This document shows positions 1 through 64,000 of a DNA stretch of 64,000 nt, piece after piece. How positions within the stretch are numbered: position 1 is the first letter of the stretch; every line of letters begins with the position of its first letter. The stretch comes from Candidatus Marinacidobacterium sp. GTDB taxonomy: Bacteria; Acidobacteriota; Vicinamibacteria; Marinacidobacterales; Marinacidobacteraceae. The DNA lies in NCBI GenBank assembly GCA_965204755.1, contig OZ242011.1:1920001-1984000 (forward strand). The letters run 5' to 3'. The translations under genes and the position numbers were made by a program. The notes under the pieces were generated by a model. It had not been told where the DNA came from and made no database searches. It saw nothing but the letters and a program-made list of their open reading frames with translations.

Positions 1-9
1 GGCCTGCTG

Positions 10-1038
10 GTGCAGGAGCGCGCCGCCGACACCTTGGAGCGCCTCGCCGAAGAAGGCGGCGACTACTTCTACCGCGGCGACTTCGCCCGGAAGGTCTGCG
101 AAGTGGTGAAGGCCGCCGGCGGCGTGCTCACGCCCGACGACTTCGCCCGTTGGGAACCGCGCTGGCAGGAACCGGCGTGGGGCCGCTACCGCGACTGGCG
201 CATCGCCGGTTCCCCGCCGCCGGACAACGGCGGCACGCACCTCATCGAGATGCTCCAGATGCTCGAGCACTTCGACCTCGACCACCACGGCCCGCCCACC
301 GAGTCCGCCGAGTCCCTGCTGCAGTTGGTGCGCATCAGCCACGCCGTGTACACGGAAGGCGCCCGGCAGAACGACCCGGAGACCCACCCGCTGCCGCTCG
401 AGACGATCCTCTCGCCGGAGTACGCGCGGATGCGATACGAGTTGCTGCAGATGGGGCACCCGGTAACCGACCCGGCCGACCCGCCGCCCCCCGCCGGCAG
501 CAACCATGTGACCGTGGTGGACGCCGCCGGCAATGTGGCGACGATCCTCCATTCCTGCATGTCCTACCCGTGGAGCAACGGCCTCTTCGCCGAGGGCGTG
601 AGCATCTGCGCCGCCGGAGCGCACTTCCTGCGCGTGATGCCGCGCCCCGGCCAGCGGATCTCGGCGTATGTCGCGCCGAACATCGTCTTCCGGGGCGACC
701 GCCCGGTGCTGGCGTCCGGCTCGCCGAGCGTCAGCCTGCTGCAGAACATCCTCCAGAACAGCCTGAACCTGCTGCAGTTCGGTGAGGAGGTGGAGGAGTC
801 GGTGCACCGCCCGCGCTTCGGCGGCCCGTCGCTCACCGTTCCCGGAGCGGTCCTGATCGAGGCCGACTTCCCGGAGGCGGTGCGCGAGAAGGTCGCGGAG
901 CGGGGAATCCGCTTCGATGTGGTGAATCCCTGGAACTGGCACCACGGCTCGTTCGAGGGCATCCACCTCGGCGAAGACGGCGAGCGCCGCGCCTGCGGCG
1001 ACCCGCGCCGGTGCAGCATGGCGGAGGCCTCCGCGTAG
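10..1038 (+). CDS. ggt: Gamma-glutamyltransferase family protein (Ntn-hydrolase), 5' part lies outside the window
   Basis: FYRGDFA, SPPPDNGG, S-N-H-V-T-V-V-D-x-x-G-N small-subunit start, GSP and HRPRF motifs in GGT order. Confidence 0.85.
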   Translation: MQERAADTLERLAEEGGDYFYRGDFARKVCEVVKAAGGVLTPDDFARWEPRWQEPAWGRYRDWRIAGSPPPDNGGTHLIEMLQMLEHFDLDHHGPPTESAESLLQLVRISHAVYTEGARQNDPETHPLPLETILSPEYARMRYELLQMGHPVTDPADPPPPAGSNHVTVVDAAGNVATILHSCMSYPWSNGLFAEGVSICAAGAHFLRVMPRPGQRISAYVAPNIVFRGDRPVLASGSPSVSLLQNILQNSLNLLQFGEEVEESVHRPRFGGPSLTVPGAVLIEADFPEAVREKVAERGIRFDVVNPWNWHHGSFEGIHLGEDGERRACGDPRRCSMAEASA

Positions 1039-15507: not shown

Positions 15508-15629
15508 GGCCGTTTCGAACTCCCGATCCGTTTGAGGTGTCCGCCCGGTCCCAAAAGGGGGTGCGGGCGGGCGTAGAGCGTAACGTGCCGGCGTTTCCGG
15601 GAACGAGCGCCCTCGAGGGGCAGGCCCGG

Positions 15630-17747
15630 CTACTCCGCGAGGGCCTTGAACACCGCGTTGGCGGGGTCGGCGTAGAACTCGATGTTGATCTTGGTCCAGA
15701 AGTTGTCGGGGAGGTCGTTCAGGTCGCGGCGCGAAGACACCGGCATCAGCAGGGTCGTGGCTTGGCGGTCCACGGCGGCTTCGGCGATCTCCACCGGCTT
15801 CGGCAGCCGCTCGACCGCCCCCCCGAGGCTCAGCGCCCCGACGACGACCGCGCCGCCGCGGACGCGGCGCTCCAGCAGCCCGCCCACCAGCGCCACCAGC
15901 GCCGGCAACCCGAGACCCGCGCCCGAACGGTCGGCGTCCAAGGCGTGGAGTTGGACCTGGTATTCGTGGCCGCGCGGATCGCGGTCGCCCACCAACTCCT
16001 TCGCCAGCGCGTAGAGGTTCTGTTCGCCGACGCGGACGCTCTCCCGGAAGCGCGGGGGCACCGGGTGGTTCAGGACGCGGGCGCCGCTCCCCGGGCCGAC
16101 CGCCGCCTCGATCCGGTAGAGGCCGGGCCCGGTTTCGCCGGTTCCCGGCCCGAAGGCCCAGACCTGCCCCGGCGGGAGCGGGTCCTCGTCGATCGCGTCG
16201 TCGCTCCGCAACTCCGGCGTGCCGACGAACTGCTCGATGCCGTCCGCGCCGAGCGTGTACGAGAAGCCGGTGTTGCGGAACTCGCTCTTGAGGCACCGCT
16301 TCTGCTGCTCCTTGACCCGGCGGCGCGCTTCCAGCGCCATCCTCACGATCCCTTCCAGGTCTTCGTCCGGGATCTCGGTCTCCGGGTCGGGGAACAGCAA
16401 CTTGACCAGCGCCGAGCAGGTCTTGTTCACCGCTTCCTGGTCGCGTCCGCTGAGCGCGCCGCCCCAATAGACCCGGTTGTGCAGGGCCGAAATCCTCGGC
16501 GCCTTCCGCATCTCGGTCCAGCACTCGCTGAGGAAGTCGCTGACCAGGCCGAACCGGTCGGTCAGGTGCGCTTCCGGGTCGAGTTTCGGGAAGTCCCAGC
16601 CGGGCGCGAAGGCGTGGATGCGGTCGTGGAAGGCGGTGTCGTTCCGCATCTCCTTCGGCAGCGGGCTGAGCAGGTGCCCGACCCGCTGTTGCCGCTCCAC
16701 ATCCAGGTCGAAGTTGCCGACCATGACGATGCCGCCCTCGGCGCGGATGCTCTCTTTGCCGCGGCTGAACTCGCCCGACGCCATGTAGCCCTTCATGATG
16801 TTCGCGCCGTCCTTCTGGTCGAAGGAGATGCCGGACACTTCGTCGAAGCAGACCACATCGTATTGGCACACCAGCCCGCGCTGGCCGCTCGCCATGTTGA
16901 CGAACATCTTGGCGACGGTGGCCTTGCCCCCGGAGATCAGGTGCGAGTAGGGCGAGATCTGCTGGTAGAGGTGGCTCTTGCCGGTGCCGCGCGGCCCGAG
17001 TTCGACCAGGTTGTAGTTCCGCTCCACGAACGGCGCCATCCGCAGCAGCGCGACCCGCTTGGCCCGCTCGTCGAGCGCCCCCGGTTCGAGTCCCACGGAA
17101 CGCAGCAGGAAGTCGCGCCATTCCTCGGTGCTGAACCGGCCGCGCCCTTCCGCCAGCCGCTTCAGGACATCCGGGTCCGACATCTGGATCGGGCGCAGGG
17201 ACTCGATGCGGAACGGTTCGCCGCCGGACTCCTGAGCCGCGATCGCGTCGTAGCGGAGCGTCACTTCGGCGTAGAAGCCGTCGGTGAGCATCCGCTGGTT
17301 CTCGCGCACCGTCGTCGGCTCGATACCCACCTGGCGCTCGCCGAGACTGGGCAACTCGACCAGGTAGCGGTCGCGCCGGGCGTCCAGCCGCGCCCGCACC
17401 AAGTCGATCAACTTGACCGTGCCGCGTTCCCGGGCGTCGGAGCGGAACCGCTCCCGGTCGGAGACGCGCACGGTGCGGCCCTGCAGTTGGCCTTCGACGA
17501 TCTGGAGCCCCTCCTCGATCTCGGCGTCGTCGGTGCTGGCGCAGAACCGCCCGAGCAGGAACTCCACCACATAGGTCGGCACCGGGAACTGCCGCGCGTA
17601 GCGGCGCACCAGGTCCTTGCGGACGAGGTAACCCGGGAACGCGTCCGCCGCGATCCGGTCGAGCGAGTCGAGTTCCCTCGGCGCCCCGTTGCCGTTTCCG
17701 GCGCCCGTTCCGTTGCCGTTGACGCCGGCGCTTTCGGATTCGTTCAT
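15630..17747 (-). CDS. brxL: BREX Lon-like protein BrxL
   Basis: VPTYVVEFLLG, FVERNYNLVELGPRGTGKSH, DVVCFDEV, GYMASGEFSRG and C-terminal Lon-like domain; ATGA coupling with pglZ. Confidence 0.95.
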   Translation of the reverse strand: MNESESAGVNGNGTGAGNGNGAPRELDSLDRIAADAFPGYLVRKDLVRRYARQFPVPTYVVEFLLGRFCASTDDAEIEEGLQIVEGQLQGRTVRVSDRERFRSDARERGTVKLIDLVRARLDARRDRYLVELPSLGERQVGIEPTTVRENQRMLTDGFYAEVTLRYDAIAAQESGGEPFRIESLRPIQMSDPDVLKRLAEGRGRFSTEEWRDFLLRSVGLEPGALDERAKRVALLRMAPFVERNYNLVELGPRGTGKSHLYQQISPYSHLISGGKATVAKMFVNMASGQRGLVCQYDVVCFDEVSGISFDQKDGANIMKGYMASGEFSRGKESIRAEGGIVMVGNFDLDVERQQRVGHLLSPLPKEMRNDTAFHDRIHAFAPGWDFPKLDPEAHLTDRFGLVSDFLSECWTEMRKAPRISALHNRVYWGGALSGRDQEAVNKTCSALVKLLFPDPETEIPDEDLEGIVRMALEARRRVKEQQKRCLKSEFRNTGFSYTLGADGIEQFVGTPELRSDDAIDEDPLPPGQVWAFGPGTGETGPGLYRIEAAVGPGSGARVLNHPVPPRFRESVRVGEQNLYALAKELVGDRDPRGHEYQVQLHALDADRSGAGLGLPALVALVGGLLERRVRGGAVVVGALSLGGAVERLPKPVEIAEAAVDRQATTLLMPVSSRRDLNDLPDNFWTKINIEFYADPANAVFKALAE

Positions 17748-20062
17748 GAGTCCTCCCCTACGCGGGTCGGGACGGTGGCGAGCACGCGGTCGTCTTCGTC
17801 CAGGACGACGACGGAGAGCGCGGCCGTTTCGTGTTCGTCGCCGGACAGCACCAGGCTGACGGAACCGTCCGCGTCCACCGGCTTCGGCTGAGCGACGGAC
17901 TCCCCGGAGGGGCCGCCGAGCCGCAGGGCCGCCGTCCACCCCGCGCCCCCGCCGGCGACGACGAGGCGGCACCGGAACCGTCTCCAGGTCACGGAAGTGA
18001 TGGAAGCGTCCGCCGCGCTCCCGGCCGGGCGCTCGACCACGATGTCCGGCGTCAGGCATTCCTGGATGCTGAGGCCGCCGTGCGCGAAGGCGTCCGACTT
18101 GTTGAAACAGGAGATGCCCGCGGCGGCGGCGAACCATTCCCCGGCGTTCCAACCCCACGGGTAGCGCGGCGCGCCCGGATCCGATTCCCCGGCGATGACC
18201 GCGCACCGCGCCCACCGGGTTTCCGTGAGGTGCTTCGGCAAGTCCGTCTTCGGCAGCCCGCCGGGAAGGAGCAGCCATCCGTGGTCGGTAACCACCCGAA
18301 CCGTCTTCCAGCCGGCGTCCAGAAGGTCGGCGATTCGCCGGGCGAGGCCGTCGAGTTTCTCCGGGAGGCGCGACGCCAGCCCGGCCTGCTCGTGGTGTCC
18401 GGTCTTGTCGATTTCCCCGGTTTCGAGCCACCCGCGCGCCGCCGCCGAGCGGGGTCGGTCGAAGGCGCCGGCGCCGAGGATCTGGTAGCCGCGTTCCGTC
18501 ATCGCCGCGCGAAGGCCGGACGCGTCCACGGCGCGGCCGTCGGAACGGAAGCGGGGCGCGAAGGACTTGTCGAGCGCGGCCGCTTCGAGGTCACCGGCCA
18601 CCGGAGTCACCCCCGCCTTCGCGGTCGCGGTAACCGTCGGGAGCGCCGCCCAACGCGTGTCCACGGCCGCCCGCAGGCCCCGCGCTTCCAGTCGTTCGGC
18701 GAGCCGCCGGCCGAGGTCGTAGCGAAGACCGTCCACGAAGAAGAGGCAGCCGTCCCCGCCCGCTTCGACGAGCGGTTGTTCGCCCGCTCCGGGAAGCGGT
18801 TTCCGGAGAACGGCCCGCTGGAAGGCCAGCGCGGAATCGTGCAGCCACGGTTCCAGCAGGTGCCGCACGACTTCCGACACCAACTCTTCGTCCGCGCCCC
18901 CCACCGCCGCCACCGCTTCCCAGGCGGCCGCGTCGGCGCCCCACCCGCGCTCCAAGTACGCCGACCGCACTTCCTCCGGATCGCCGCCGCCGAGCGGCGA
19001 TTTCGCCGCCGCCGCCAGCCGCGCCAGCGGTTCGAGCGCCGCCGCGAGCGGCGACCGGCCGAGTTTCGCCCAGACCCAACCCCGCCGCTTCCCGTGTTCC
19101 TCCTCGAGTTTCACCACCCGGTCGCACGCTTCCCGCTGCGGCAGCGCGCCCAGCCCGGCGAGCGCGTCGCGGAGCGCCCCTTCGCGCCGTTCGTTCTCCT
19201 TCGGCCAGCGCTCCGGCGCCGCCGTCAGGAGTTTGCCCCGAGGCTGGCTCCGCTTCAGGACATCCACGACCTCGCGGAACGCCGTCGGGGAGTCGGTGAA
19301 TCGAGCCCAGACCGGATCCCATCCGGAAGCGCCCGAACCGAGACGCTGCCCGGCCTCCACCTCCGATTTCTCCCCGGGATCGAAGTCCAAGTCCTTCGCG
19401 CACTGGCCGCGGAAGGCGTCCCAGCGTTCCCCCAGCCGGGCGCGCGTCCCCGACGGGTCACCCATCCAGAGGAGGAGATCCCGGCGGGCGTCCGCGACCT
19501 GAAGCCGTTGGAAGTCGTCCGCTTCCAGCCGCCGACCCCGGAGCCGGGCGAGCGGCGTCACCGCCACTTCCGGCAACGCCTGCCGCAGCGCGTCCCTGGT
19601 GTCGCGGTCTTCGGCCACCTCGCACTGCGCCCCGTGGCGCGAACCGAGGAACCCGGCGGCGGTCCAGTCCTTCCCGTTCGGATGCAGCCACGCCGCGCCC
19701 CGATGGAGCAGTTCGATCAGCGGCTTCAGCCGATCCGGGCAGTCGTCGCCGGCGCGGAGGTCTTGCTTCCCGATACCGGGCAGGTAGAGGATCGGCACGC
19801 CCTCGCCGTTGGCAGCGCGGTCCACCTCGCACCGCAACCAGATCGCCGGCCCGGAGCGTTTCTCCGGCTCGTACTCCCCGAGGACGAACAGTTCGGGAAC
19901 CCGTTCGCGCGCCAGGCCGGCGACCCGTTTCCAGTCGCCCTTCGGGTCCGGCCAGAGGATCGCCGCCGGCCGCGTCTCCCCGTCCACCGGGACGCCGCGG
20001 GCGCGGAGGCTCTCGATCACCCGGTCGAGCAGCGTCGCCTCGTCCCGCGGCAGCAGGTTCAC
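17744..20062 (-). CDS. pglZ: BREX-1 phosphatase PglZ (type B)
   Basis: AAILWPD, GPAIWLRC, FVDGLRYD, LPTVTATAK, VTDHG and HGGLSIQE motifs. Confidence 0.95.
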   Translation of the reverse strand: MNLLPRDEATLLDRVIESLRARGVPVDGETRPAAILWPDPKGDWKRVAGLARERVPELFVLGEYEPEKRSGPAIWLRCEVDRAANGEGVPILYLPGIGKQDLRAGDDCPDRLKPLIELLHRGAAWLHPNGKDWTAAGFLGSRHGAQCEVAEDRDTRDALRQALPEVAVTPLARLRGRRLEADDFQRLQVADARRDLLLWMGDPSGTRARLGERWDAFRGQCAKDLDFDPGEKSEVEAGQRLGSGASGWDPVWARFTDSPTAFREVVDVLKRSQPRGKLLTAAPERWPKENERREGALRDALAGLGALPQREACDRVVKLEEEHGKRRGWVWAKLGRSPLAAALEPLARLAAAAKSPLGGGDPEEVRSAYLERGWGADAAAWEAVAAVGGADEELVSEVVRHLLEPWLHDSALAFQRAVLRKPLPGAGEQPLVEAGGDGCLFFVDGLRYDLGRRLAERLEARGLRAAVDTRWAALPTVTATAKAGVTPVAGDLEAAALDKSFAPRFRSDGRAVDASGLRAAMTERGYQILGAGAFDRPRSAAARGWLETGEIDKTGHHEQAGLASRLPEKLDGLARRIADLLDAGWKTVRVVTDHGWLLLPGGLPKTDLPKHLTETRWARCAVIAGESDPGAPRYPWGWNAGEWFAAAAGISCFNKSDAFAHGGLSIQECLTPDIVVERPAGSAADASITSVTWRRFRCRLVVAGGGAGWTAALRLGGPSGESVAQPKPVDADGSVSLVLSGDEHETAALSVVVLDEDDRVLATVPTRVGEDS

Positions 20063-21381
20063 GATTCGCCTCCGCCGGGGTAGGGGCGAGGCGCGGGATT
20101 CGGCCAGCCGCCGGATTCCGCGGCCAACTCGCCGTCCGGATTCGCATTGAAGAGGCGGATGACGAAGATGTCGCGTTCCGCCGAGATCTCCGGCGGGGGC
20201 AAGGAGTTCTTCCGCATTTCGTTGTGGATGCGGGTCACGCCCTCTCCCTTGCCGTGCATGTAGCCGGCGGCGGCGAGGGCGCGAGCCAGCAGCGGATTCC
20301 GGGAGGAGTGCGCGCGAGCCCCTTCTCGCAGTTCCGCCTCGGTCGCCGGAGGCATTACCCCACCGGGACTCTCGACCTCCACGCGATCCGCAAAGAACCA
20401 GACCTCCGTTTCGCGCCCCTGGATCCCGTAGTCGCGGTGCGCGACGGCGTTGACGATCGCTTCCCGGAGGGCGAACTCCGGAATCTCCGAGAAGGTTTCG
20501 AACCGCATGCCGTTGAAGCGCTCCACGCGGCGGATTTGCGTGGGGCAGACCAGGAGCGCGTCTCGCAGCGCGTCGGCGACCGGGGCTTCGAGCGTCGCGA
20601 GTTGGCTCACATTCCGATGCCGGCCGGGCCGTCGCTCGGTCCCGAAAACGCGAAAGAGGCGGATGCCGGCCCGCGGATGCGACGGGTAACCCGCGCGTCG
20701 TCCGAAGAGGAGCAGGGCGGCGTTCGTGAGCCGCCAGTCGTGCGGCCCATGTTCGATCAACCCATAGTGACGGAGGGCATCGACCGGCGACCGCCCTCCG
20801 AGCGGCGTCCGTTCCATGAAGCGTCCGACGAGGCCCAGGTCCAACGCGTCCAAGGTGGCATCCGGGCTGAATCGCGGCTCATAGCCGCCACCCCGATACG
20901 CCTGCTTCTTCGCACTTATGGTCTCTTGCCGCTCGCGGACGATCTGCGCCCCGACGCGGTACGGGAACCCGTTCCCTTCGACCGTGACTGCTTCGGGCGC
21001 CATGCCGGCGGCGAAGACCAGGACCTCGAAATCCCCGACCCTTCCTCGCGCGGCGTGGCAGGAGACGCAGCGGTCGAGTCGCGTCTCGGGGACGGCGAGC
21101 AGGCCCTCCACCACATTCTCGGGATAGCCGTGACCCGACGGAGCGCGGTCGTCCTCCACGCCCACGAGCAACACTCCACCGTCGGCGTTGGCGAACGCGG
21201 CGACCACTTCCGCGATCTCGTCGCGGAGCGCCCGTCGCGGAAGCGGCGTCGCCCGGTCTCCGCTTCGATCCCAGGCGGACTTGAACTCGAGGAACTGCCC
21301 TTCGCCACGCTCGATCAGCGCGACCAGTTCGGACTCGGTGTAATCGAACGCGCGCCCGGGAGCGACTTCGTTCCCCGTCAT
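20059..21381 (-). CDS. AlbA_2 (Schlafen-like) plus HATPase_c_4 protein
   Basis: GEGQFLEFKS, AFANADGGVLLVGVED, EAIVNAVAHRDY, VESPGG and SRNPLL motifs; 4-nt overlaps with both neighbours. Confidence 0.88.
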   Translation of the reverse strand: MTGNEVAPGRAFDYTESELVALIERGEGQFLEFKSAWDRSGDRATPLPRRALRDEIAEVVAAFANADGGVLLVGVEDDRAPSGHGYPENVVEGLLAVPETRLDRCVSCHAARGRVGDFEVLVFAAGMAPEAVTVEGNGFPYRVGAQIVRERQETISAKKQAYRGGGYEPRFSPDATLDALDLGLVGRFMERTPLGGRSPVDALRHYGLIEHGPHDWRLTNAALLLFGRRAGYPSHPRAGIRLFRVFGTERRPGRHRNVSQLATLEAPVADALRDALLVCPTQIRRVERFNGMRFETFSEIPEFALREAIVNAVAHRDYGIQGRETEVWFFADRVEVESPGGVMPPATEAELREGARAHSSRNPLLARALAAAGYMHGKGEGVTRIHNEMRKNSLPPPEISAERDIFVIRLFNANPDGELAAESGGWPNPAPRPYPGGGES

Positions 21382-22313: not shown

Positions 22314-22317
22314 TCGC

Positions 22318-26936: not shown

Positions 26937-26965
26937 GACTCCACTACTCCGCGCTCGGTGCCCAC

Positions 26966-27526: not shown

Positions 27527-27536
27527 GCCGAAGTCG

Positions 27537-27992: not shown

Positions 27993-28044
27993 GCCAACTC
28001 CCTGAACGCCGGTTTCTGCCGTTGCCGCTCAATCGAACGCCGGC

Positions 28045-28380: not shown

Positions 28381-28398
28381 CGCGTTCCTCCCCTCGTC

Positions 28399-31959: not shown

Positions 31960-31961
31960 GG

Positions 31962-39958: not shown

Positions 39959-40023
39959 CCCGGGTGGGCCCCGCTGCCGTTGTCTTCGGCGCCCCGGCGC
40001 TCGGACGCCCCGGCGAGGACTCG

Positions 40024-40830: not shown

Positions 40831-41000
40831 TCGAGTCTCCTTCCGCGCCGCTGCGGCGCCGGGCGCGGACTATGCCGTATGCGGCCGGCCGGGTCGGAGC
40901 CCGCCGCGGCGCGGCCTCCGACGCCCACGCGTCCCGGTGGCCGAAAGGGGCGTTCTCGCCGAAGGCGAACGGCGGCGCAACGGGCTAAATTCACGCGGTT

Positions 41001-43244: not shown

Positions 43245-43301
43245 TCCGCCCGGCTTCGGGCCCGCCCCGCCGCGCGGGTCGGCTGGTAGGGTTTTTTCCA
43301 T

Positions 43302-44141
43302 ATGGACTTCCTGACGCGCGCCGTCGGCGAACTCGGCGCGGTCTCGGTGGCCGCGGCGGCGGCGGTGCTCCTCTCCGGGCTCTACACCTCGTTCTGGGGC
43401 GGCTTCAAGGACTCGCCCTGGGAGGGGTTCAAGCCGCGCACCTTCCCGCGGAGCATCCTCTTCTCGGTCGGCATCTACGCCGGGCTGCTGCTCGTGCCGC
43501 CGCTGCGGGAGCGGGTCGGGGCGCTCTCGCTCGTCCACCTGTTCTTCCTGGTGATGGGGCTCGAGCGGTTCCTCACCGAGTTGTACAAGGGCTTCTTCCG
43601 CCGGGAGAACCAGGCGAAGTACTTCGTGCCCTCGCGGATCACGATCCTCGGACGCCCGCTCGAGAGCGAGCGGCTCCGCCGTTCCGCGGGCGTCGTGCTG
43701 GTCGCGTTGGTGTTGCTGGTGCTCCTGCTGCCCTATCCCGTCACCACTTTCCCCGGTTACCTGCTCACCGCCTACCTGACCGGTCTGCTCGTCGCCGGAG
43801 GCGGCGCGTACAAGGACGCCCCGTTCGAGGGATTCCGCTACCTGAAGTTCCAGCGCTCCGGTCTGGTGCTCGCCGTCCTGTCGCCGGTCTTCTGGTGGAT
43901 CCGGGACCCGGCGGTCCCGGTTTCGCTCGGGGTCCTGATCTACCTGAACGGCGGACTCGAACGTTTCGCCGTCGAGTACTACAAGACCTTCATCCAGCGG
44001 AACATGTCCGGGAAGTTCCGCCCGGACCTGCCGAAACTCGAAACGAAGCGGCGCGAAGCGTTCCACTTCGGCGCGCTCGCCATCATCGCCGCCGTCGCCG
44101 CGCTCAGCCTGCTGCTCGCGACGGGCGGCGCCGGCGGCTGA
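43302..44141 (+). CDS. Hypothetical polytopic membrane protein with two internal repeats
   Basis: GGFKDSPWEGF..FPRS / GAYKDAPFEGF..FQRS and LERF..ELYK / LERF..EYYK. Confidence 0.8.
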   Translation: MDFLTRAVGELGAVSVAAAAAVLLSGLYTSFWGGFKDSPWEGFKPRTFPRSILFSVGIYAGLLLVPPLRERVGALSLVHLFFLVMGLERFLTELYKGFFRRENQAKYFVPSRITILGRPLESERLRRSAGVVLVALVLLVLLLPYPVTTFPGYLLTAYLTGLLVAGGGAYKDAPFEGFRYLKFQRSGLVLAVLSPVFWWIRDPAVPVSLGVLIYLNGGLERFAVEYYKTFIQRNMSGKFRPDLPKLETKRREAFHFGALAIIAAVAALSLLLATGGAGG

Positions 44142-45685
44142 CGACGCCCGACCGCGGCGCCGCCCCCGCCGGCGGTTTCGACGCCGTCGTCGTCGGTTCC
44201 GGTCTCGGGGGAGCGTTCGCGGCGCTCGCCCTGACCGGGGCCGGGGCGCGAGCGCTGGTCCTCGAGCGCGGCGGGTGGCCGAAGCGGGACGAGACCGACT
44301 GGAACCCGCGCGCCATCCTGATCGAACACCGCTACCGGGGCAGCGCGCTCCCGGTAAACCAGGGGCCGCGCCCGGAAGAACTCCCGGTGAACGAAGTCGT
44401 GGGCGGGAAGTCGGTGTTCTACGGCGCGGCGTCGCTGCGCTTCCGGCCGGCCGACTTCGCGCGCTGGCCGGTCTCCTACGACGAGATGGAGCCGTTCTAC
44501 GCCGAGGCGGAGCGGCGGCTCGGCGTCCACGGAACCGCCGGCGCCGACCCCTGCGAGCCGCCGCGTTCCGGGCCGTATCCGCACCCGAGCCCGCCGCTCT
44601 CCGCTCCCGCCCGGCGCATCCGCGACGCCGGGCGGCGGTTGGGGTTCGAGCCGTTCCCGCTGCCGCTGGCGATCAACTTCGCGAACGAAGAGGCGCCGCA
44701 GTGCGTCCTCTGCGACACCTGCGACGGCTTCCCCTGCCGGATCGAAGCGAAGAACGACGCCGCCGGGATCCTCCGCTCGCCGGAAGCGGAGGGCCGCCTC
44801 ACCGTCGCGCCCGGCGTGTCCGTCCGCCGGCTGGTGGTGGAGCGGGGGCGGGTCACCGCCGTCGAGGGCGTCGAGCGCGCGACGGGACGGGAGGCGCGCT
44901 GGGCCGCCCCGCTGGTCGTCTTGGCCGCCGGGGCGATCGGGACCCCGGCGATCCTGCTCCGTTCCGGCCTCGACCGGTTCGGCGTGGGCCGCTTCCTGAT
45001 GCGCCACTGCAACGCGGTCGCCGCCGGCCTCTTCCCGTTCCCCACGAACCCGGAGCGGGTCTTCCACAAACAGGTCGGCTTCACCGACGGTTACGAGACC
45101 GGCCGCGGCCCGGACGGGCTCGCGCCGGGAGTCATCCAGGACATCTACACGCCCGCCCCGGAGGTCGTCCGCCACTTCGCCGGCGGCGCGGCGCGGCTCG
45201 CGCTCCCCGGCCCGGTGATCCGCCGGCTCCAGAACCTGATCTGCATCGCCGAGGACGAGGCGCGGGAAGACAACCGCGTCGCGCTCACCGGGGAGACCGA
45301 CGAGCGGGGGATCGAGCGCGCCGGCGTGACGCACCGCTACCGGGAGACCGACCGGGAGCGGCTCCGTTCGCTCACCCGCCGGGCGCGGCGCATCCTCCGC
45401 TCCGCCGGCGCCCTCGCCACCCGCGTCTGGCCGATCCGCAGTTTCTCCCACGCGGTGGGCACGGTTCGGATGGCGGCGGCCGAGGACGCCGGCCCGCTCG
45501 ACCCGCAGGGCCGGTTCCGGGGCGTCGAGAACCTCTTCGTGACCGACGGCTCCGCCTTCCCGTCCTCCGGCGGCGTGAACCCCAGCCTCACCATCGCCGC
45601 CAACGCCCTCCGCATCGCCTCGGGCATCTCGACTCGACCGGCGGGCCGCCCGCCGACCCCGCGCCCCGCGTCCGGCCGAGGTTGA
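44138..45685 (+). CDS. GMC family oxidoreductase
   Basis: VVVGSGLGG, VGGKS, CVLCDTCDGFPC, HAVGTVRM and DGSAFPSSGGVNPSLTI motifs; start uncertain (CTG at 44138). Confidence 0.88.
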   Translation: MTTPDRGAAPAGGFDAVVVGSGLGGAFAALALTGAGARALVLERGGWPKRDETDWNPRAILIEHRYRGSALPVNQGPRPEELPVNEVVGGKSVFYGAASLRFRPADFARWPVSYDEMEPFYAEAERRLGVHGTAGADPCEPPRSGPYPHPSPPLSAPARRIRDAGRRLGFEPFPLPLAINFANEEAPQCVLCDTCDGFPCRIEAKNDAAGILRSPEAEGRLTVAPGVSVRRLVVERGRVTAVEGVERATGREARWAAPLVVLAAGAIGTPAILLRSGLDRFGVGRFLMRHCNAVAAGLFPFPTNPERVFHKQVGFTDGYETGRGPDGLAPGVIQDIYTPAPEVVRHFAGGAARLALPGPVIRRLQNLICIAEDEAREDNRVALTGETDERGIERAGVTHRYRETDRERLRSLTRRARRILRSAGALATRVWPIRSFSHAVGTVRMAAAEDAGPLDPQGRFRGVENLFVTDGSAFPSSGGVNPSLTIAANALRIASGISTRPAGRPPTPRPASGRG

Positions 45686-45795
45686 ATCGTTGAAATCGCA
45701 AGTCGTTGACGAATGGGGCGTAACCGACCTGCCGAACCGGGCGTGGCGCCGCATCGACGGCGTGGCGGCGCGGGGCGCGGGTCTAAATTGACGGG

Positions 45796-46698
45796 ATGCG
45801 TTTTCGACTCTCGTTTCTCCTCGCCGCGGCGGCGCTCGTCGGCCTCGCCGGCGCCGCAGGCGCCCAGAACGGCTTCTACCTCGGCGCGGACCTCGGGACC
45901 GGCGGGACCAGGCCGCTCGAGTCCACCCGGACGAACCACGGCGTCTCGACGAACTGCGACCAGTGGCTCGCCTCCGCGACGCTGCCGGACGGGACCGCCG
46001 TGCCGCTGCCGCTCGAGCAGTGCGCCCCGCAGGCGCTCCCGGCGAGCCCCAGCCGGTTCACCCTCGGCCGGGCCGGGCTGATCGGCGGAGCGCACGCCGG
46101 CTACGCCTACGGCCGCATTCGCTTCGAAGGCGAGTACCTCCGCCGCGCCAACACCGGCGAGCAACTCGACCTCGTCGTCCCCGGCGACCCCAAGCAGGCG
46201 GAGTTCACCCAGCGCACCGAAGAGATCGACAACCTGCGCGGCGACCTCTTCTTCGCCAACCTGGTGGTGGACGCGAGCGGCCGGTCGGCTCGATTCCGCC
46301 CCCACTTCGGCGCCGGGTTCGGCGCCATGTGGATGGAGATGGAGTACGCCGGCGTCTCGGTCCGCACCGCCGACCGCGAGGTCCTGCTCTCGCTCGGCCG
46401 CAACCCCAACGCCGCCGGCCTGCGCTCGGTCGGCGAGGCCACGGTCCGCGACCGGCTCTGGGGCTGGCAGGCGCTCGCCGGACTCGACTTCGCGGTGACC
46501 GACCGCGTGGCGTTGACCGCGCGCTTCCGCTACCTGGACGCCTTCGGGACCTTCGAGGCGCCGGGGAACTCCTGGGATCCGCTGCGCGGCCACGAGTCGT
46601 CCGTCGGGCCGGGCGGCGAGGCGATCACCTACGACATCGGCGCCGAGGGTTTCGGCCTCTGGACGGCGACCGCGGGCATCCGGCTCTTCCTGAACTGA
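45796..46698 (+). CDS. Outer-membrane beta-barrel protein (OmpA/porin-like)
   Basis: Signal peptide, GFYLG, RFEGEY, P.FGAGFG, WQALAG and terminal GIRLF strands. Confidence 0.78.
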   Translation: MRFRLSFLLAAAALVGLAGAAGAQNGFYLGADLGTGGTRPLESTRTNHGVSTNCDQWLASATLPDGTAVPLPLEQCAPQALPASPSRFTLGRAGLIGGAHAGYAYGRIRFEGEYLRRANTGEQLDLVVPGDPKQAEFTQRTEEIDNLRGDLFFANLVVDASGRSARFRPHFGAGFGAMWMEMEYAGVSVRTADREVLLSLGRNPNAAGLRSVGEATVRDRLWGWQALAGLDFAVTDRVALTARFRYLDAFGTFEAPGNSWDPLRGHESSVGPGGEAITYDIGAEGFGLWTATAGIRLFLN

Positions 46699-55384: not shown

Positions 55385-58300
55385 CTAAAACGGCCAGCCC
55401 ATCCAGAAGTCGAACTTCCAGCCCGGGACCGTGGTGGAGAAGTCCGTGCGCCTCGACCAGGCGAAGTTGAGCGGCAGTCCCAGCAGGTAGATGCGGGCGT
55501 TGAAGCCGTAGGACGCGACGAAGTCGTCGAGCCCGAAGCCCTCGGAGACGCAGGCCGAGTTGTTCCGGGGGCCGCAGAGGTTCCCCAGCCGCGATTCCCT
55601 CCGGTCGGTGGAATAGATGCCCAGCGGGTCGCCGGCGTAGGCGGCGCCGCCGGCGTCCACGAAGACGCTGCCCCGGAGCGGGCCGACCAGTCCGATCGGC
55701 GTGATGGCGGCATCTATGATCGGGAAGCGGAACTCGACGGTGGCGTGTCCGCCCCGGTTTCCGGAGAACGAGTAGAGCGGGTAGCCGCGCAGTTCGCCGT
55801 TCCCGCCGAACCAGAAGAACCCCGGCGCCTCGCCGGCGCTGTGGAACCACTTGAGCCGCGCCGCCAGCACGCTGGCGGTGGTCACCTGGAAGTACTTGCG
55901 CGCGTCCAGGTTGAAGGTGGTCCGCGAAAGGAACGGCCCGCCCGGCGACCATTCGACGCCGGCCAGCACCGTGCTGCCGGCCTGCGGGAACACCGCCGGG
56001 CCGACCTGCCGGAACCGGATCGTCTCCTGCACGAACGAGAACCGCGTGGGCAGCAGGTGTCCGGTGGGGAATACCCGCTGGTAGAAGTCGGCGTACTGGC
56101 TGGTGAAGTCGCCGGGCAGCGTCGGGTCCTGGCCGGGCGTGAGGAACGGGTTCTGGAAACCGGAACTCTGGTAGTCGTAACCGATCCCCATCTCCAGCCG
56201 GCGGAACCGGCTCAGCGGATACAGCGCCCGCACCGACGCGCCGGAGGAGCGGATCGTGCCCAGCCGGTCGCGCCGGCTCCAGTAACTGCCGTAGTAGTAG
56301 GGGAGCCTCGGATAGAAGAACGAGGTGTTGTCGTGGCCTTCGACCGCGTACTGGAACCTTCCGGAGAGGTTGGCGTACTGGACGTTGTACACCCGGAACG
56401 AACGCACCGAGTAGGCGGTGAAGGAGAAGCGGTCGTCCCCCAGAACATCGGAGAACGAGATCGCGGTGCCGCCGAAGAAGTCCCCGTCGCTGGTGACCCC
56501 GGCCTGGATCGGCGGCGGGCCGTCGAGGAACAGCCGCTCGAACCGGCTCTTCTTGCGCTTGTTCTCGCTGATGACCTGGTGGTCCACGGTGGGGACGAAA
56601 TCTATGACCGGGCCGGGAGTGCGGATGACCGTGTCCGCCATGATCTCCTTCACCGGCTCGTCCATGGCGAGCGTGTGGAGGCCCCAGTTGCCCTTGTGGT
56701 AACTGGTGAACAGCAGCGTGTCCTGCCCGGTCTCCGGGTCGGACATCACGCTCGGCGCGAAGTTCCCTCCCAGCACATCGGTGTACTGGATGATGTCGCC
56801 GGTTTCGGTGTCCAGCGTCCGGATGTTGAAGATGCCGTCGTCTTCGTTGGAGGAATAGACCAGGTCCCGGCCGTTCGGCGCGAAGATCGGGGCCACATCG
56901 TGGAAGGTCCCGAAAGTGATCTGCTCTTTCTCCCCGGTGGCGATCCGCAGCCGGTACAACTTGTCGTAGCCGCTGATCCGGCGGCTGTAGTAGAGCCACT
57001 CGCCGTCCGGCGAGACGGTGGGGAACTTGTCGTGGAAGTCGTCCCTCGTCAGGTTCTCGATCTCCTCGGTGGCGAGGTCGATCCGGTAGATGTCCGCGAT
57101 GCCGTTCCGGAGCGCGGAGAAGTACACCCAGTCGCCGTCGGGGCCGACCTGGGGGAACTTGGCCCGGTCGAGCGGCATCTCGATCCGGCGGACGATCTCG
57201 GAGTCCACCACATCGGCGAACAGGAGAGCGCGCCGCTTCCGGAACTTCCCGAAGAAGGCCACCTGCGACCCGTCCGGCGTCCAACTCAGGTTGCGCCCGA
57301 TCAACTGGTCTTCGCCGGTCAGCCCCACCACATTGATGAACTCCCCGGCGTACCCGGGAGTCAGGTTGCGGATGACCTCGCCGTCCTTCGCCGACAGCAG
57401 CACCACATCGTATTCCGTCTCCCGGCGGTTCCCGGCGAGCACCGCGATCACTTCGCCCGAAGGGGAGTGCGCGGCGGAGATGGCGCCCACATAGCGGCCT
57501 TCGCGCGGGGAGAGGTCCACGCTGTAGTCCTCCGGGATCTCCTTGTCCCGGTACGGCTTGAACCGCTCCTTGATCCATCGCTTGTATTCCCGGTAGAACT
57601 CCTCCGGCGCCATCCGGAACGCCTGCTCATAGACCTCTTCGCTGACCCCGCCGGTGACCGCCCGGCGCAGTGAGAACACGAACTGCCGGACGCCTTCTTC
57701 GCCGAACCTCTCTTCCATGAAGTCGAAGATGGACGCGCCGAAGGAGTACGGCGTCCGGGTGAACGCCTGGTTCAACTCCGCGAAGGTCGGCACCTGGTCG
57801 GCCACCGCGGCGTCGCGCACCACCATCAGGTCGAGCGGGTCCCATTCGTCCTCCATGTAGGTGGCGAGCCCCTCGTCTATCCAGAGCGGCACGGTCTGGC
57901 GGAAGAGCGAACGGGGGACGATGTCGAATTCGAAGATGTGGGTGAGTTCGTGGAGGAAGAGTTCCTGCAGTTCGTCCGGCGGGTTGTCGATCGGGATCAC
58001 CATCCGGTCGCGGGCCGACTCGGCGAACGCGCCGACCCCCTCCGGGATCTCCGAAGGCGAGAGGTTGGTCTGGGCGAACTCGGAGAAGGTCCGGTAGAGG
58101 ATCAGCGGGATGGCGAACGGGATCTCGTGCTTGAGCCGGTCGGAGATCGTCTCGTAGGCGCTTTCGGCGTAACTCACCAGCCGCCCGAGTTCCTCCTCCA
58201 TCTCCGGGTAGTAATAGACATCGAAGTGGGGCGAGCGGTACACCTGCCAGTCGTGCCGGTCGTACTTGACCTTGTTCTTCCCGTAGAACGGGATGAAGTA

Positions 58301-58417
58301 CTGCGCCGCGGCCGGCGCGGCGAAGAGCGAAGCGGCGGCGGCGGCGAAAGCGGCGGCGAACAGGGCGGCGCGGGCGGCGCGCCCGAATCGGTCGAGGATC
58401 GAAGTGGTCGGCTTCAC
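55385..58417 (-). CDS. Peptidase MA-like + PD40/TolB propeller + BamA/TamA-type barrel protein
   Basis: Signal peptide, GKNKVKY, HELTH, PLWIDEGLA, SPDG repeats, LRGY motif and C-terminal F. Confidence 0.88.
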   Translation of the reverse strand: MKPTTSILDRFGRAARAALFAAAFAAAAASLFAAPAAAQYFIPFYGKNKVKYDRHDWQVYRSPHFDVYYYPEMEEELGRLVSYAESAYETISDRLKHEIPFAIPLILYRTFSEFAQTNLSPSEIPEGVGAFAESARDRMVIPIDNPPDELQELFLHELTHIFEFDIVPRSLFRQTVPLWIDEGLATYMEDEWDPLDLMVVRDAAVADQVPTFAELNQAFTRTPYSFGASIFDFMEERFGEEGVRQFVFSLRRAVTGGVSEEVYEQAFRMAPEEFYREYKRWIKERFKPYRDKEIPEDYSVDLSPREGRYVGAISAAHSPSGEVIAVLAGNRRETEYDVVLLSAKDGEVIRNLTPGYAGEFINVVGLTGEDQLIGRNLSWTPDGSQVAFFGKFRKRRALLFADVVDSEIVRRIEMPLDRAKFPQVGPDGDWVYFSALRNGIADIYRIDLATEEIENLTRDDFHDKFPTVSPDGEWLYYSRRISGYDKLYRLRIATGEKEQITFGTFHDVAPIFAPNGRDLVYSSNEDDGIFNIRTLDTETGDIIQYTDVLGGNFAPSVMSDPETGQDTLLFTSYHKGNWGLHTLAMDEPVKEIMADTVIRTPGPVIDFVPTVDHQVISENKRKKSRFERLFLDGPPPIQAGVTSDGDFFGGTAISFSDVLGDDRFSFTAYSVRSFRVYNVQYANLSGRFQYAVEGHDNTSFFYPRLPYYYGSYWSRRDRLGTIRSSGASVRALYPLSRFRRLEMGIGYDYQSSGFQNPFLTPGQDPTLPGDFTSQYADFYQRVFPTGHLLPTRFSFVQETIRFRQVGPAVFPQAGSTVLAGVEWSPGGPFLSRTTFNLDARKYFQVTTASVLAARLKWFHSAGEAPGFFWFGGNGELRGYPLYSFSGNRGGHATVEFRFPIIDAAITPIGLVGPLRGSVFVDAGGAAYAGDPLGIYSTDRRESRLGNLCGPRNNSACVSEGFGLDDFVASYGFNARIYLLGLPLNFAWSRRTDFSTTVPGWKFDFWMGWPF

Positions 58418-59246: not shown

Positions 59247-59255
59247 CGAGTCCGG

Positions 59256-61281: not shown

Positions 61282-63585
61282 ATGAACTCCCTCGTCATCG
61301 TCGAGTCGAACGCCAAGGCGAAGACCATCGAGAAGTTCCTCGGCAAGTCCTACCGGGTGCTGGCCAGCGGCGGCCATGTGCGCGACCTGCCGTCGCGGGG
61401 CCTCTCCGTGGACATCGAAAACGGGTTCGCCCCGAAGTTCGAAGTGGTCCCCGACCGGGTCAAGATCCTGGACAGCCTGAAGCGGGCGGCCAAGCGCACC
61501 GACCGCATCTACCTGGCGACCGACCCGGACCGCGAAGGCGAAGCCATCAGCCACGACCTCGCCGAGGAGTTCCGCGCGGCGCTGGGCAAGGGGAAGCAGG
61601 TGCCCATCCAGCGGATCACCTTCCACGAGATCACCCCGCCGGCGGTGCGCCGGGCGCTCGAGGAAGCGGGCGAAGTGGACGCGAACCGGGTGGCGGCGCA
61701 GCAGACCCGCCGGGTGCTCGACCGGATCGTCGGCTACAAGATCTCCCCGCTCCTCTCGCGGAAGGTCGCTCCCCGGCTCTCCGCCGGGCGGGTGCAGTCG
61801 GTCGCGCTCCGGCTCATCTGCGAGCGGGAACGCGAAATCCGCGCGTTCGTCATGGAGGAGTACTGGCGGATCGAAGGCCACCTCGCCACCGAGTCCGGCG
61901 CCCCGGTGGTCGCGCTCGCGGACATCCCGGTGAACCCGCCGAAGAAGCCGGTCGCCCGCAACGAAACCGTCGCGACCGCGATCCGCGGCGCCCTCTCCCG
62001 CTGCCGGTTCCGGGTCGGCGCGGTGGAGTCCAAGACCCGCCGCGACCACGCGCCCCCGCCGTTCATCACCAGCACGCTGCAGCGCCAGGCCGCCTCCGCG
62101 TTCCGCTTCCCCGCCGCCCGGACGATGCGCACCGCCCAAGCCCTCTACGAGGGCGTGGACCTCGGCTCCGGCGACCGGGTCGGCCTCATCACCTACCTGC
62201 GGACCGACTCCACCCGCGTCTCGAAGGAAGCGCTCGGCGAAGTCCGCCGGCACATCGCGCAGCGGTTCGGCGGCGACTTCCTGCCGGAGAAACCCAACTT
62301 CTTCCGCAAGGGGAAAGGCGCGCAGGACGCCCACGAAGCCATCCGCCCCACCTCGGTGGAGCGGACCCCGGACGCGGTCGCGCCCTACCTGAACGACGAC
62401 CAGCGGAAGTTGTACCGGATGATCTGGGAGCGCTTCGTCGCCTCGCAGATGCGCCCGGCGGTCTTCCACGACACCCGGGTGACCGTCCGCGCCGAACACC
62501 CGGAGGGCCGCCCCCCGGAGATCGCGGACTTCGGCCCCGCCCCCGAAACCCTCACCGCGACCGGCTCCGTCCTCGTGGAGAAGGGGTACCGGGTGCTCTA
62601 CCGGGAGACCGCCGAAGAAGTGGCGGCGGACGCCGACGCCGACGACGCGCGCCGCCCGCTGCCGGCCCTCGAGCAGGGGCAGCCGCTGCGCCTCCGCGAG
62701 ATCCGGCCCCGCCAGCACTTCACCTCGCCCCCGCGCCGCTACAGCGAGGCCGGGTTGATCCGCAAGTTGGAGCAGAACGGCATCGGCCGGCCGAGCACCT
62801 ATGTCCCGACGCTCCGCCGCATCAAGGACCGGGAATATGTGCGGACGAAGGCCCGGGTGTTCATGCCCACCGAAGTGGGGATGCTGGTGAGCGACTTGCT
62901 GACCTTCAGTTTCGACGCGCTGTTCAATGTCCGCTACACCGCCGGGATGGAGGCGAACCTCGACCGGATCGAACAGGGGGACGCGGACTACCTGACCACG
63001 CTCGAAGCGTTCTACGAGGAGTTCTCGAAGACGCTGGACCGGGCGCTGGTGGAGATGCCCCGGATCAAGGGGCTCCCTACCGCCGAAGGATGCGAACTCT
63101 GCGGGAAGCCGCTGGTCCTGCGCTGGAGCGGCGGGGAGAAGTTCCTCGGTTGCGCCGGGTTCCCGGAGTGCCGGGGGAGCCGGTCGCTGCCCGGGGAAGG
63201 CGCGGCGGAGATCGAGGACGAGTCGCCGCCCTGCCCGGAGTGCGGCGCGGCGATGAGCGCCCGGCGCGGCCGGTTCGGCCCGTTCCTCGGCTGCTCCCGC
63301 TACCCGGAGTGCCAGACGATCATCCAGTTGCGCGACGGCCGGCTGGTGCCGAAGGCGAAGGCGGAACCGGTGGACGAGAAGTGTCCGGAGTGCGGGAAGC
63401 AGTTGGTGAGGCGGCAGAGTCGGCGCGGCCCGTTCCTCGGCTGCAGCGGTTTCCCCGGCTGCCGCTACCTCCGCTCCGAACGCGGCGCGGCGAAGACCGG
63501 CCGGAAGAAGAAGACGGCGAGGAAGAAGGCGGTCTCCCGGAGGCGAACCGCGGCGACCGGCCGCGCCGCCGCCGCCCCGGCGTGA
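61282..63585 (+). CDS. topA: DNA topoisomerase I
   Basis: LVIVES.AKAKTI, ATDPDREGE, SAGRVQS, ITYLRTDS, GIGRPST and three C-terminal Zn ribbons. Confidence 0.96.
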   Translation: MNSLVIVESNAKAKTIEKFLGKSYRVLASGGHVRDLPSRGLSVDIENGFAPKFEVVPDRVKILDSLKRAAKRTDRIYLATDPDREGEAISHDLAEEFRAALGKGKQVPIQRITFHEITPPAVRRALEEAGEVDANRVAAQQTRRVLDRIVGYKISPLLSRKVAPRLSAGRVQSVALRLICEREREIRAFVMEEYWRIEGHLATESGAPVVALADIPVNPPKKPVARNETVATAIRGALSRCRFRVGAVESKTRRDHAPPPFITSTLQRQAASAFRFPAARTMRTAQALYEGVDLGSGDRVGLITYLRTDSTRVSKEALGEVRRHIAQRFGGDFLPEKPNFFRKGKGAQDAHEAIRPTSVERTPDAVAPYLNDDQRKLYRMIWERFVASQMRPAVFHDTRVTVRAEHPEGRPPEIADFGPAPETLTATGSVLVEKGYRVLYRETAEEVAADADADDARRPLPALEQGQPLRLREIRPRQHFTSPPRRYSEAGLIRKLEQNGIGRPSTYVPTLRRIKDREYVRTKARVFMPTEVGMLVSDLLTFSFDALFNVRYTAGMEANLDRIEQGDADYLTTLEAFYEEFSKTLDRALVEMPRIKGLPTAEGCELCGKPLVLRWSGGEKFLGCAGFPECRGSRSLPGEGAAEIEDESPPCPECGAAMSARRGRFGPFLGCSRYPECQTIIQLRDGRLVPKAKAEPVDEKCPECGKQLVRRQSRRGPFLGCSGFPGCRYLRSERGAAKTGRKKKTARKKAVSRRRTAATGRAAAAPA

Positions 63586-64000
63586 GTCGGCGCGGCGCCG
63601 CCGCCTCCCGGAAGAACCCGGCTTCCGCGCCGCTCGCGGAACACGCGGCCTCCTTCCTCACCGACCTCGAAGAGCGGCGGGGCGCCTCGCCCCACACGGT
63701 GCGCAGTTACCGGAGCGACCTCGCGGACTTCCTCGAGTACCTGGACGCGGTTTCGGCGGACGACGCCGAGCCGGCCGCTCCCCCGACGGCGGATTCGGTG
63801 GACATCGCGCTCCTCCGCAGTTACCTGGCCTCGCTCCACGAGCGCGGTCTCGGCCGGACCACCGCCGCCCGGAAACTGGCGGCGCTCCGTTCGTTCTACC
63901 GCTACCTCGGGCGGATCGGCGCGGTGGAGCGGGACCCGGCGCGGGCGGTTCGCGCCCCGAAGACGCCGCGCCGCATCCCGCAGCGGCTCGAACTCGGGGA
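63582..64000 (+). CDS. xerC: Tyrosine recombinase XerC, N-terminal part (runs off the window)
   Basis: Manual translation: SPHTVRSYRSDL..F, RTTAARKLAALRSFYRYL, DPA..VRAPK...IP; GTGA overlap with topA; dprA-topA-xerC synteny. Confidence 0.85.
   Translation, partial: MSRRGAAASRKNPASAPLAEHAASFLTDLEERRGASPHTVRSYRSDLADFLEYLDAVSADDAEPAAPPTADSVDIALLRSYLASLHERGLGRTTAARKLAALRSFYRYLGRIGAVERDPARAVRAPKTPRRIPQRLELG

Follow-up and report, generated by a model that had tools for sequence, protein, structure and literature searches.

The tetranucleotides ACGT and AGCT have been almost completely lost from the genome of Candidatus Marinacidobacterium sp. (assembly GCA_965204755.1, hereafter G000), and the evidence supports the view that the words themselves are selected against. 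The lineage has probably been under long-lasting selection of this kind, with restriction avoidance as its most likely cause. The loss came to light in a stretch of 64,000 nt, positions 1,920,001 to 1,984,000 of the forward strand of contig OZ242011.1, referred to here as the window (69.9% GC). An exhaustive count over positions 1 to 64,000 of the window finds seven copies of ACGT, at 15583, 23487, 24601, 24751, 24852, 43961 and 56382, and a single AGCT, at 23463, which is exactly the list that had been compiled by eye in the original prediction. Base composition alone predicts 177 copies of each word, and a second-order Markov model 126 of ACGT and 128 of AGCT. Other palindromes are common, as had also been stated: the window contains 403 copies of GATC, 498 of TCGA, 103 of GTAC and 67 of TGCA.

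A codon-aware expectation was obtained by shuffling synonymous codons within each gene, with 200 shuffles for the window. The open reading frames (ORFs) for this purpose were called afresh, with a minimum length of 100 aa, a GC3 > 0.8 and the order GC3 > GC1 > GC2, genes of atypical composition being excluded from the codon counts. This gave 1,822 ORFs genome-wide (68% of the genome), 29 of them in the window (42.7 kb). The window ORFs hold two copies of ACGT where 85.3 ± 5.2 are expected (lowest shuffle 73), and none of AGCT where 107.3 ± 6.9 are expected (lowest shuffle 84).

The depletion is a property of the genome and not a peculiarity of the window. In the single contig of 3,975,858 bases (71.7% GC) there are 265 copies of ACGT and 332 of AGCT, against 10,247 of each expected from composition and 7,147 and 7,446, respectively, from the Markov model. 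The observed/expected ratios for the two words thus lie between 0.03 and 0.045. Within the 1,822 ORFs the codon-shuffled comparison yields ratios still further below 1, with 76 copies of ACGT against 4,690 (0.016) and 65 of AGCT against 5,999 (0.011). All three reading frames are affected, at 0.014, 0.014 and 0.050 of the codon-shuffled expectation for ACGT and 0.013, 0.007 and 0.058 for AGCT. In 764 intergenic spacers, totalling 100 kb, the ratios are 0.019 and 0.061. The depletion acts on the DNA, whatever its reading frame or coding status.

It had been proposed that the missing words were replaced by their C-to-T products, either through long-term erosion of C5-methylated cytosines or through an avoidance of restriction strong enough to reshape codon-pair usage. 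In bulk such products are indeed in excess. In the coding sequence of the window ATGT occurs 84 times against 31.8 expected, AGTT 133 times against 59.7 and AACT 131 times against 80.1, although ACAT reaches merely 74 against 64.8. Genome-wide, the Markov ratios are about 1.65 for ATGT/ACAT and about 1.5–1.6 for AGTT/AACT. The distortion of codon pairs is equally plain: in coding frame 1, writing codon boundaries as hyphens, xAT-GTx is found 3,782 times where 796 are expected, an excess of 2,986 which exactly equals the deficit of xAC-GTx. AGT-T is found 1,330 times against 342. However, the frames xAC-GTx, xAG-CTx and AGC-T cannot separate mutation from selection, because C-to-T is the only one-step synonymous escape that they offer. 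The excess of C-to-T products in coding DNA is mostly forced by the genetic code, and where that constraint is relaxed the signature of deamination is not found.

The choice among threonine codons preceding a T provides the clearest test, since ACG can there be vacated in more than one way. Among 4,059 such codons in G000, ACC accounts for 3,023 (74%), ACT for 897 (22%), ACA for 119 (2.9%) and ACG for 20 (0.5%). A four-state substitution model was fitted to the other contexts; it predicts an ACA share before T of 39–47% under neutral deamination, represented by an added G-to-A rate that pushes ACG to 0.5%, and of 1.9–3.5% under selection on the word. The observed 2.9% compares with 1.0–3.5% in other contexts with ACG set aside, and represents a slight excess over the codon shuffle (119 against 66). 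At 50 rpoB/rpoC positions where any of 13 non-depleted relatives carries ACG-T, G000 has ACCT at 27, ACTT at nine and ACAT at none. In 11 non-depleted relatives (22 loci) ACG makes up 148 of 603 threonine codons before T; in the depleted congener G001 it makes up four of 208, with ACA at eight. A side observation concerns ACT, of which 897 of the 1,952 codons in G000 precede a T: its 22% share is about double the figure of some 12% to be expected, from the usage of the relatives, had the lost ACG share been spread proportionally. A general preference for T-ending codons before T may account for this.

Three further comparisons point in the same direction. In the frames A-CGT and A-GCT a C-to-T change alters the amino acid, and yet only 14 of 5,340 and 15 of 5,583 codons, respectively, retain the word, compared with 4–12% in other contexts; with ratios of 0.050 and 0.058 these frames are depleted some 20-fold. 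The spacers contain 118 copies of ATGT/ACAT against baselines of 74–140, where about 275–340 would be needed to absorb the roughly 200 lost sites. The AGY share of serine codons before T has fallen to 22%, from 36% in non-depleted relatives, so that many AGC-T codons must have become TCN and not AGT. Erosion is therefore rejected as the main cause, as ACA-T is rare, the non-synonymous frames are depleted and the spacers show no pile-up of products. Replacements follow synonymous availability and not the C-to-T direction as such. What remains of the original proposal is the bulk replacement by C-to-T products, which mostly reflects synonymous escape, and the reshaped codon-pair usage; selection against the words is upheld too, with restriction itself a further step for which no cognate enzyme was found in G000. 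A C-to-T look-alike excess in coding DNA is not on its own evidence of methylcytosine decay, and the choice of ACA as opposed to ACC or ACT at ACG-T, the non-synonymous frames and the spacers together make a simple discriminating test.

The distribution of the trait was assessed from word counts in 20–200 kb of each of 23 relatives in the same order, 12 of the 27 other genomes of the family lying outside the sample. G001, of the same genus (16S 98.8% identical; third positions of rpoB/rpoC 65% identical), is depleted in both words, with 46 copies of ACGT and 48 of AGCT in 200 kb (observed/expected 0.09 and 0.09). G005, of another genus, is depleted in ACGT alone (35 copies in 180 kb; 0.06), AGCT being normal. 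The other 21 sampled relatives have normal levels of both. In a protein tree of rpoB/rpoC, G005 groups not with G000 and G001 but with a non-depleted sister genus (SH-aLRT 99), so the loss of ACGT either arose twice or was reversed several times. The trait is young, recurrent and lineage-specific, and patchy among close kin. At 27 AGCT positions the escapes of G000 and G001 coincide in 19 cases, where 14.1 would be expected, a sample too small to weigh. The only variable ACGT position in the 16S gene, alignment column 177 (near 2,266,410 in G000), reads ATGT in G000, G001 and G005, whereas both of the normal relatives in the comparison have ACGT.

Beyond the order, 117 unrelated loci of at least 9 kb, gathered for other purposes, included three in which one of the words lies below 0.2 of expectation and none in which both do. 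Particular cases are a Bacteroidetes contig (L207) with two copies of ACGT against 42 expected, an Armatimonadaceae contig (L159) with ten of AGCT against 76, and an Oscillatoriales contig (L235) with 14 of ACGT against 80. Single-word purges recur sporadically across phyla. As for its source, the lineage is a high-GC acidobacterium with a genome of about 4 Mb whose near-identical or closely related DNA occurs in sponge and marine metagenomes; a literature search for the genus name gave no match.

The 597 sites surviving in G000 show strong clustering: neighbouring sites lie less than 500 bp apart in 42% of cases, against 7% under a Poisson process, and 539 of 796 5-kb bins contain none. The windows in the lowest 5% of GC hold 49% of the ACGT survivors, and in 2-kb windows the observed/expected ratio rises from 0.009–0.019 at GC of at least 0.71 to 0.27–0.33 at GC 0.58–0.62. 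The biggest cluster, of roughly 32 sites, is the single rRNA operon (about 2,265–2,272 kb), where the 16S gene retains four copies of ACGT and six of AGCT at positions common to its relatives. Survivors are thus concentrated in the rRNA operon and in imported stretches of low GC. No RNA gene was found in the window with Rfam. The surviving sites of the window and the neighbouring genes are as follows.

15583–15586: ACGT survivor, bordering the BREX locus immediately 3' of brxL
15630–18431, minus strand: brxL, Lon-like BREX protein (BrxL, 916 bits); no ACGT or AGCT inside
17744–20062, minus strand: pglZ (PglZ, 830 bits); no ACGT or AGCT inside
20059–23424, minus strand: three Schlafen/AlbA_2 and HATPase_c_4 ORFs, between pglX and pglZ
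23214–27383, minus strand: pglX, BREX N6-adenine methyltransferase, an ORF of 1389 aa (PADLOC PglX, 1422 bits; Eco57I/N6_Mtase domains)
23463–23466: the only AGCT in the window, within the 3' end of pglX
23487–24855: four ACGT survivors (23487, 24601, 24751, 24852), in the low-GC 3' part of pglX
28399–32463, minus strand: brxC (BrxC, 1189 bits); no ACGT or AGCT inside
32516–33343, minus strand: brxA (BrxA, 297 bits)
43961–43964: ACGT survivor, near the 5' end of a GMC-oxidoreductase ORF at 43895–45685 (plus strand)
56382–56385: ACGT survivor, within a PD40-repeat ORF at 55385–58417 (minus strand)

The 3' part of pglX carries five of the eight surviving sites of the window, and the other genes of the BREX locus have neither word inside. 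Between 23.2 and 25.6 kb the GC content is 58–65%, against about 70% around it. The gene also holds four of the seven CTAG sites of the window, at 23461, 24005, 25349 and 25546. The 3' part of pglX is compositionally foreign, which gives the impression of a recent replacement of that part of the methyltransferase which bears its specificity. Surviving ACGT and AGCT sites serve as a marker of recently imported DNA, here the 3' part of a BREX methyltransferase gene. The locus itself (15630–33343, minus strand) is complete and type-1-like, with brxA, brxC, pglX, pglZ and brxL.

It had been suggested that the genome be searched for C5-methyltransferases and vsr, and both are plentiful. G000 has six C5-methyltransferase genes (M1 to M6) and six Vsr homologues, five of the six methyltransferase genes having a Vsr gene nearby, together with 26 matches to N6_N4_Mtase. 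M1 adjoins an EcoRII homologue. M4 adjoins a nuclease of the BbrUII/HgiDII family, which scores 351 bits against a curated cut-off of 550, a resemblance at the level of the family only, and M2 adjoins a 330-aa ORF with a weak match to a Type II nuclease, the two forming a trio with a Vsr gene at 1,859,991–1,862,866 of the genome. The M5 cluster lies at 2,905,095–2,908,435. M3 lies in a cassette with the PADLOC candidate system PDC-M33 A/B/C and Vsr, and M6 in a related cassette of four genes. The NCBIfam names for the methyltransferases of G000 are generic only, and none of 7,403 relatives of M5 bears an informative name. M2 and M5 have best counterparts in G001 or G005 of at most 47% identity; homologues of M2 amounted to one weak match among metagenome contigs, and a search of 400 further genomes from the phylum gave none at E <= 1e-60. 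A beta-class methyltransferase common to G000, G001 and G005 was discounted, as it is family-wide and present in 16 of 27 genomes, non-depleted ones included.

The two related cassettes lie at 1,259,155–1,263,828 (L043, 9155–13828) and 1,516,107–1,521,298 (L046) of the genome. Each contains a C5-methyltransferase, two large uncharacterised proteins and Vsr, and one is the PDC-M33 A/B/C set with DUF6339; the parts of PDC-M33-type cassettes are in general a C5-methyltransferase and proteins of about 630–740 aa and 300–345 aa, with or without DUF6339, together with Vsr. The gene orders of the two cassettes recur in 46 and seven loci spread over many phyla and classes (Acidimicrobiia, Dehalococcoidia, Thermoanaerobaculia and Gemmatimonadota among them), and many of these loci are titled as sponge-associated. 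M3 is 72.6% identical and syntenic in G001 and is absent from the rest of the 55 genomes of the order that were searched. M6 is 68–70% identical and syntenic in G005, with homologues of 43% and 40% in G001 and G054. Within the order, M3 and M6 co-occur suggestively with the trait, but the wider prediction test described below went against them.

Further defence genes occur elsewhere in the genome, at 3,377,766–3,386,548 (L198) and 1,096,844–1,101,928 (L196). These comprise a DarT-type DNA ADP-ribosyltransferase toxin, a BPTD_3080-family restriction endonuclease fused in a 1446-aa ORF, and a 1694-aa ProA/Hhe-type anti-phage helicase adjoining a methyltransferase. A small CRISPR array with a 37-nt repeat and about eight units lies at 3,176,418–3,177,040, preceded by sequence that is perhaps the 3' end of a cas gene. 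At 1,433,100–1,433,750 (minus strand) imperfect repeats of 18 to 24 nt form a long tract which, to judge by the DNA alone, would encode a protein rich in lysine, alanine and arginine.

Restriction avoidance would account for these observations as follows. The selective agent would be self-damage by orthodox Type II endonucleases cutting AGCT (AluI-type) and ACGT (MaeII/HpyCH4IV-type), which may be resident now, along with a protecting methylase, or may have been resident in recent ancestors. Sites that can be removed without cost would give way to any neutral substitute open to them locally, in genes a synonymous codon and in spacers any base, and sites would remain where the sequence is functionally frozen, as in rRNA, or recently imported, as in islands of low GC, for instance the 3' part of pglX. 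ACGT is the site of MaeII and HpyCH4IV. AGCT is that of AluI, as a study of pandoraviruses states (Poirot et al. 2019, bioRxiv 10.1101/712018). The richness of G000 in restriction-modification genes supports this reading, and so does the patchy and recent distribution of the trait among close kin, which is of the kind described for restriction avoidance. Furthermore, the survey by Rusinov et al. (2015, PMC4687349) describes orthodox Type II systems as a cause of site avoidance, long-lived ones more so, and reports that avoidance often outlives the restriction system.

A number of points weigh against the restriction reading. No restriction enzyme or methyltransferase of G000 could be assigned to ACGT or AGCT, and with about 600 sites surviving, an active enzyme would need a protecting methylase. 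The candidate methyltransferases have fared poorly. For M6, the other 58 homologue loci (47–83% identity over the best segment; many phyla, many sponge-associated by title) all have ACGT ratios of at least 0.41, and G054, which bears a homologue, is not depleted. For M3, six loci with homologues of 62–67% have AGCT ratios of 0.51–1.38. For M5, 27 of the 28 homologue loci listed, out of 60, are not depleted; the exceptional locus is a Bacteroidetes contig (ACGT 2 against 42) whose enzyme resembles M5 no more than the rest do. Conservation in the M6 and M5 families is as high in the target-recognition regions as in the catalytic cores, so differing specificity is unlikely as an excuse. In G005, moreover, ACG-T is reduced to six of 209 codons but ACA-T stands at 21 of 209 (10%), raised about threefold albeit far below the 39–47% predicted for deamination, a hint which leaves room for a minor mutational contribution.

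The avoidance of GTCGAC, a possible positive control, tells against the same reading in that it fails to track the nuclease next to M4. Several 6-bp palindromes are moderately avoided in G000, by a factor of two to five, and GTCGAC, presumably the site cut by the BbrUII/HgiDII family, is one of them (416 against 2,076; 0.20, a 5-fold avoidance). Within the family its avoidance is patchy, with eight of 14 genomes at 0.26 or below, and it is equally low in seven of 13 sampled relatives. Most of the low relatives lack a gene of the BbrUII/HgiDII family, and G004 has homologues of 30–31%. As a control GTCGAC is uninformative, and with avoidance decoupled from the nuclease, the presence of a gene is a poor guide in either direction. 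The pattern fits the published observation (PMC4687349) that avoidance often outlives an annotated system or is decoupled from it. CTATAG is also low in G000 (9 against 66).

CTAG stands apart from both words. Its 385 copies in G000 represent 0.04 of the expectation from composition (a depletion of about 25-fold) and 0.13 of the Markov expectation. All the family members sampled have little of it (0–6 per 20 kb), and it is less depleted in families of the order with lower GC (5–28 per 20 kb). Since CTAG is low family-wide and ACGT and AGCT only in particular genera, the scarcity of CTAG is an older, separate feature.

The mutational alternatives to restriction avoidance can be considered together. 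Neutral deamination would have ACGT and AGCT methylated by resident C5-methyltransferases, with decay outpacing re-creation of the sites. The six C5-methyltransferase genes, the genome-wide excess of product words, the exact balance of xAT-GTx and xAC-GTx, the ATGT in three ACGT-depleted genomes at the variable 16S position and the raised ACA-T of G005 are all as this model would have them. It fails where the two processes can be told apart, at ACA-T (2.9% in place of 39–47%, and 0 of 50 at the aligned rpoB/rpoC sites), in the 20-fold depleted A-CGT and A-GCT frames, in spacers that would need some 200 more product words, and in the serine codons, which were not kept as AGT. In addition, the Vsr mismatch-repair genes near five of the six C5 enzymes would counter decay, and the genomes that carry enzymes of the M3, M5 and M6 types elsewhere show no depletion. 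Carriage is thus not sufficient, a further argument against methylation-driven decay, and the model appears very improbable. A mixed model, in which methylated and hypermutable sites are removed by selection as a mutational hazard, with deamination contributing in synonymous frames, has the merit of explaining the depletion of non-synonymous frames without a nuclease; the many C5-methyltransferases of G000, and the slight excess of ACA-T over the codon shuffle, larger in G005, are compatible with it. Symmetric methylation, however, leaves the change of ACG-T to ACA-T open, and this synonymous route should then dominate, whereas the share of ACA-T is no higher than in other contexts. The pure form of the hazard model is rejected on this ground. 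The selection coefficient would moreover equal a mutation rate, very weak for a 60- to 90-fold purge, and the spacers, which are free of the hazard, are as depleted as the genes, so that the mixed model too is hard to credit. An artefact of base-calling or polishing at methylated motifs in a long-read assembly might be suspected from the single-contig assembly and the C-to-T nature of most substitutes, but its probability is negligible. Errors of this sort would disregard the reading frame and yield C-to-T changes only, whereas ACC and ACT, which require G to C or T, are among the replacements and the amino acid is kept; the rRNA sites read normally, and three separate assemblies show the depletion. 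Contigs of four public runs from four studies, two of them labelled as sponge and marine metagenomes, were aligned to positions 40001–46000 of the window and agree with it: two runs show no differences and two differ by about 1–3%. Of the 188 differences 40 were listed, and neither ACGT nor AGCT arises from any of those. A loose end on the contig of one of the more divergent runs is presumably a short-read sequencing adapter.

Selection might alternatively be exerted by an agent other than an orthodox Type II enzyme, be it the PDC-M33-type cassettes, some other form of DNA surveillance or an RNA nuclease reading ACGU and AGCU. This is a serious possibility, although on balance an unlikely one. 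It is attractive in that no cognate Type II system was found in G000, the M3 cassette occurs only in the two AGCT-depleted genomes among 55 in the order, and its relative, the M6 cassette, is present in G000 and G005, both depleted in ACGT. In the pandoraviruses (bioRxiv 10.1101/712018) restriction-modification was tested and rejected and the replacements are non-directed, as they are here. Set against this, cassettes with conserved recognition regions are present in dozens of undepleted genomes of other phyla, the co-occurrence of M3 amounts to a single phylogenetic event, and an RNA-level reader is at odds with the abundant rRNA keeping its ACGT and AGCT words; restriction avoidance, for its part, is the documented cause of such patterns in prokaryotes (PMC4687349). 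That the PDC-M33-type methyltransferase-linked cassettes in particular, and not classical Type II enzymes, drive the purge is more doubtful still, and yet no lead is more interesting than the way in which they accompany the trait within the order. If they do so, they would be uncharacterised restriction-like systems with 4-bp targets, whose self-toxicity can drive a 30- to 90-fold loss of a word over no more than the divergence of a genus, and the purge would be a bacterial counterpart of the unexplained AGCT anomaly of the pandoraviruses.

Restriction avoidance remains the favoured explanation, and under any form of selection the genome is a clean natural experiment in how far selection acting on a DNA word of 4 bp can reshape a genome. 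Some 17,000–20,000 expected sites have been removed within the divergence of one genus, codon-pair usage is visibly distorted, and ACGT appears to have been purged twice independently in one family.

The avoidance of palindromes was reportedly treated in earlier work by Gelfand & Koonin and by Rocha et al. A number of parallels can be drawn with restriction-site avoidance as it is set out by Rusinov et al. (2015, PMC4687349). In both cases short palindromes that are restriction targets are under-represented against a composition-aware expectation, and in both the avoidance is lineage-specific, common to close relatives and found in hosts rich in restriction-modification genes; it can also persist with no identifiable cognate system, as 'traces of lost systems'. 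The under-representation of CTAG which the same paper reports for bacteria is likewise strong in G000. In contrast to the usual case, G000 is extreme, at 30- to 90-fold compared with 2- to 5-fold for its own 6-bp sites; it has lost two unrelated 4-bp words at once, ACGT apparently being lost a second time, independently, within the family; and no cognate enzyme was found in its genome.

In vertebrates and some Mollicutes, methylated CpG is depleted by deamination of 5-methylcytosine. The likeness to G000 lies in the loss of a short C-containing word and in a bulk excess of TG/CA-type products. In G000, by contrast, the products fail to absorb the loss where the choice is free, and the non-synonymous frames are depleted. 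A closer likeness is found in the A-clade pandoraviruses, where, according to Poirot et al. (bioRxiv 10.1101/712018), GC-rich genomes have lost nearly all AGCT from coding and non-coding DNA alike with no responsible enzyme found. The two cases have in common a clade-specific near-absence of AGCT, non-directed replacements and the failure to find an enzyme. They differ in that the pandoraviruses are viral and restriction was tested and rejected there, while G000 is cellular, with more than 30 methyltransferase genes, and restriction is plausible; ACGT, moreover, is described as abundant in those viruses but is lost in G000, which keeps its sites in rRNA and imported DNA. The best explanation of the depletion in G000 is thus an unusually strong case of restriction-site avoidance, to which the AGCT-free pandoraviruses offer the closest unexplained parallel.

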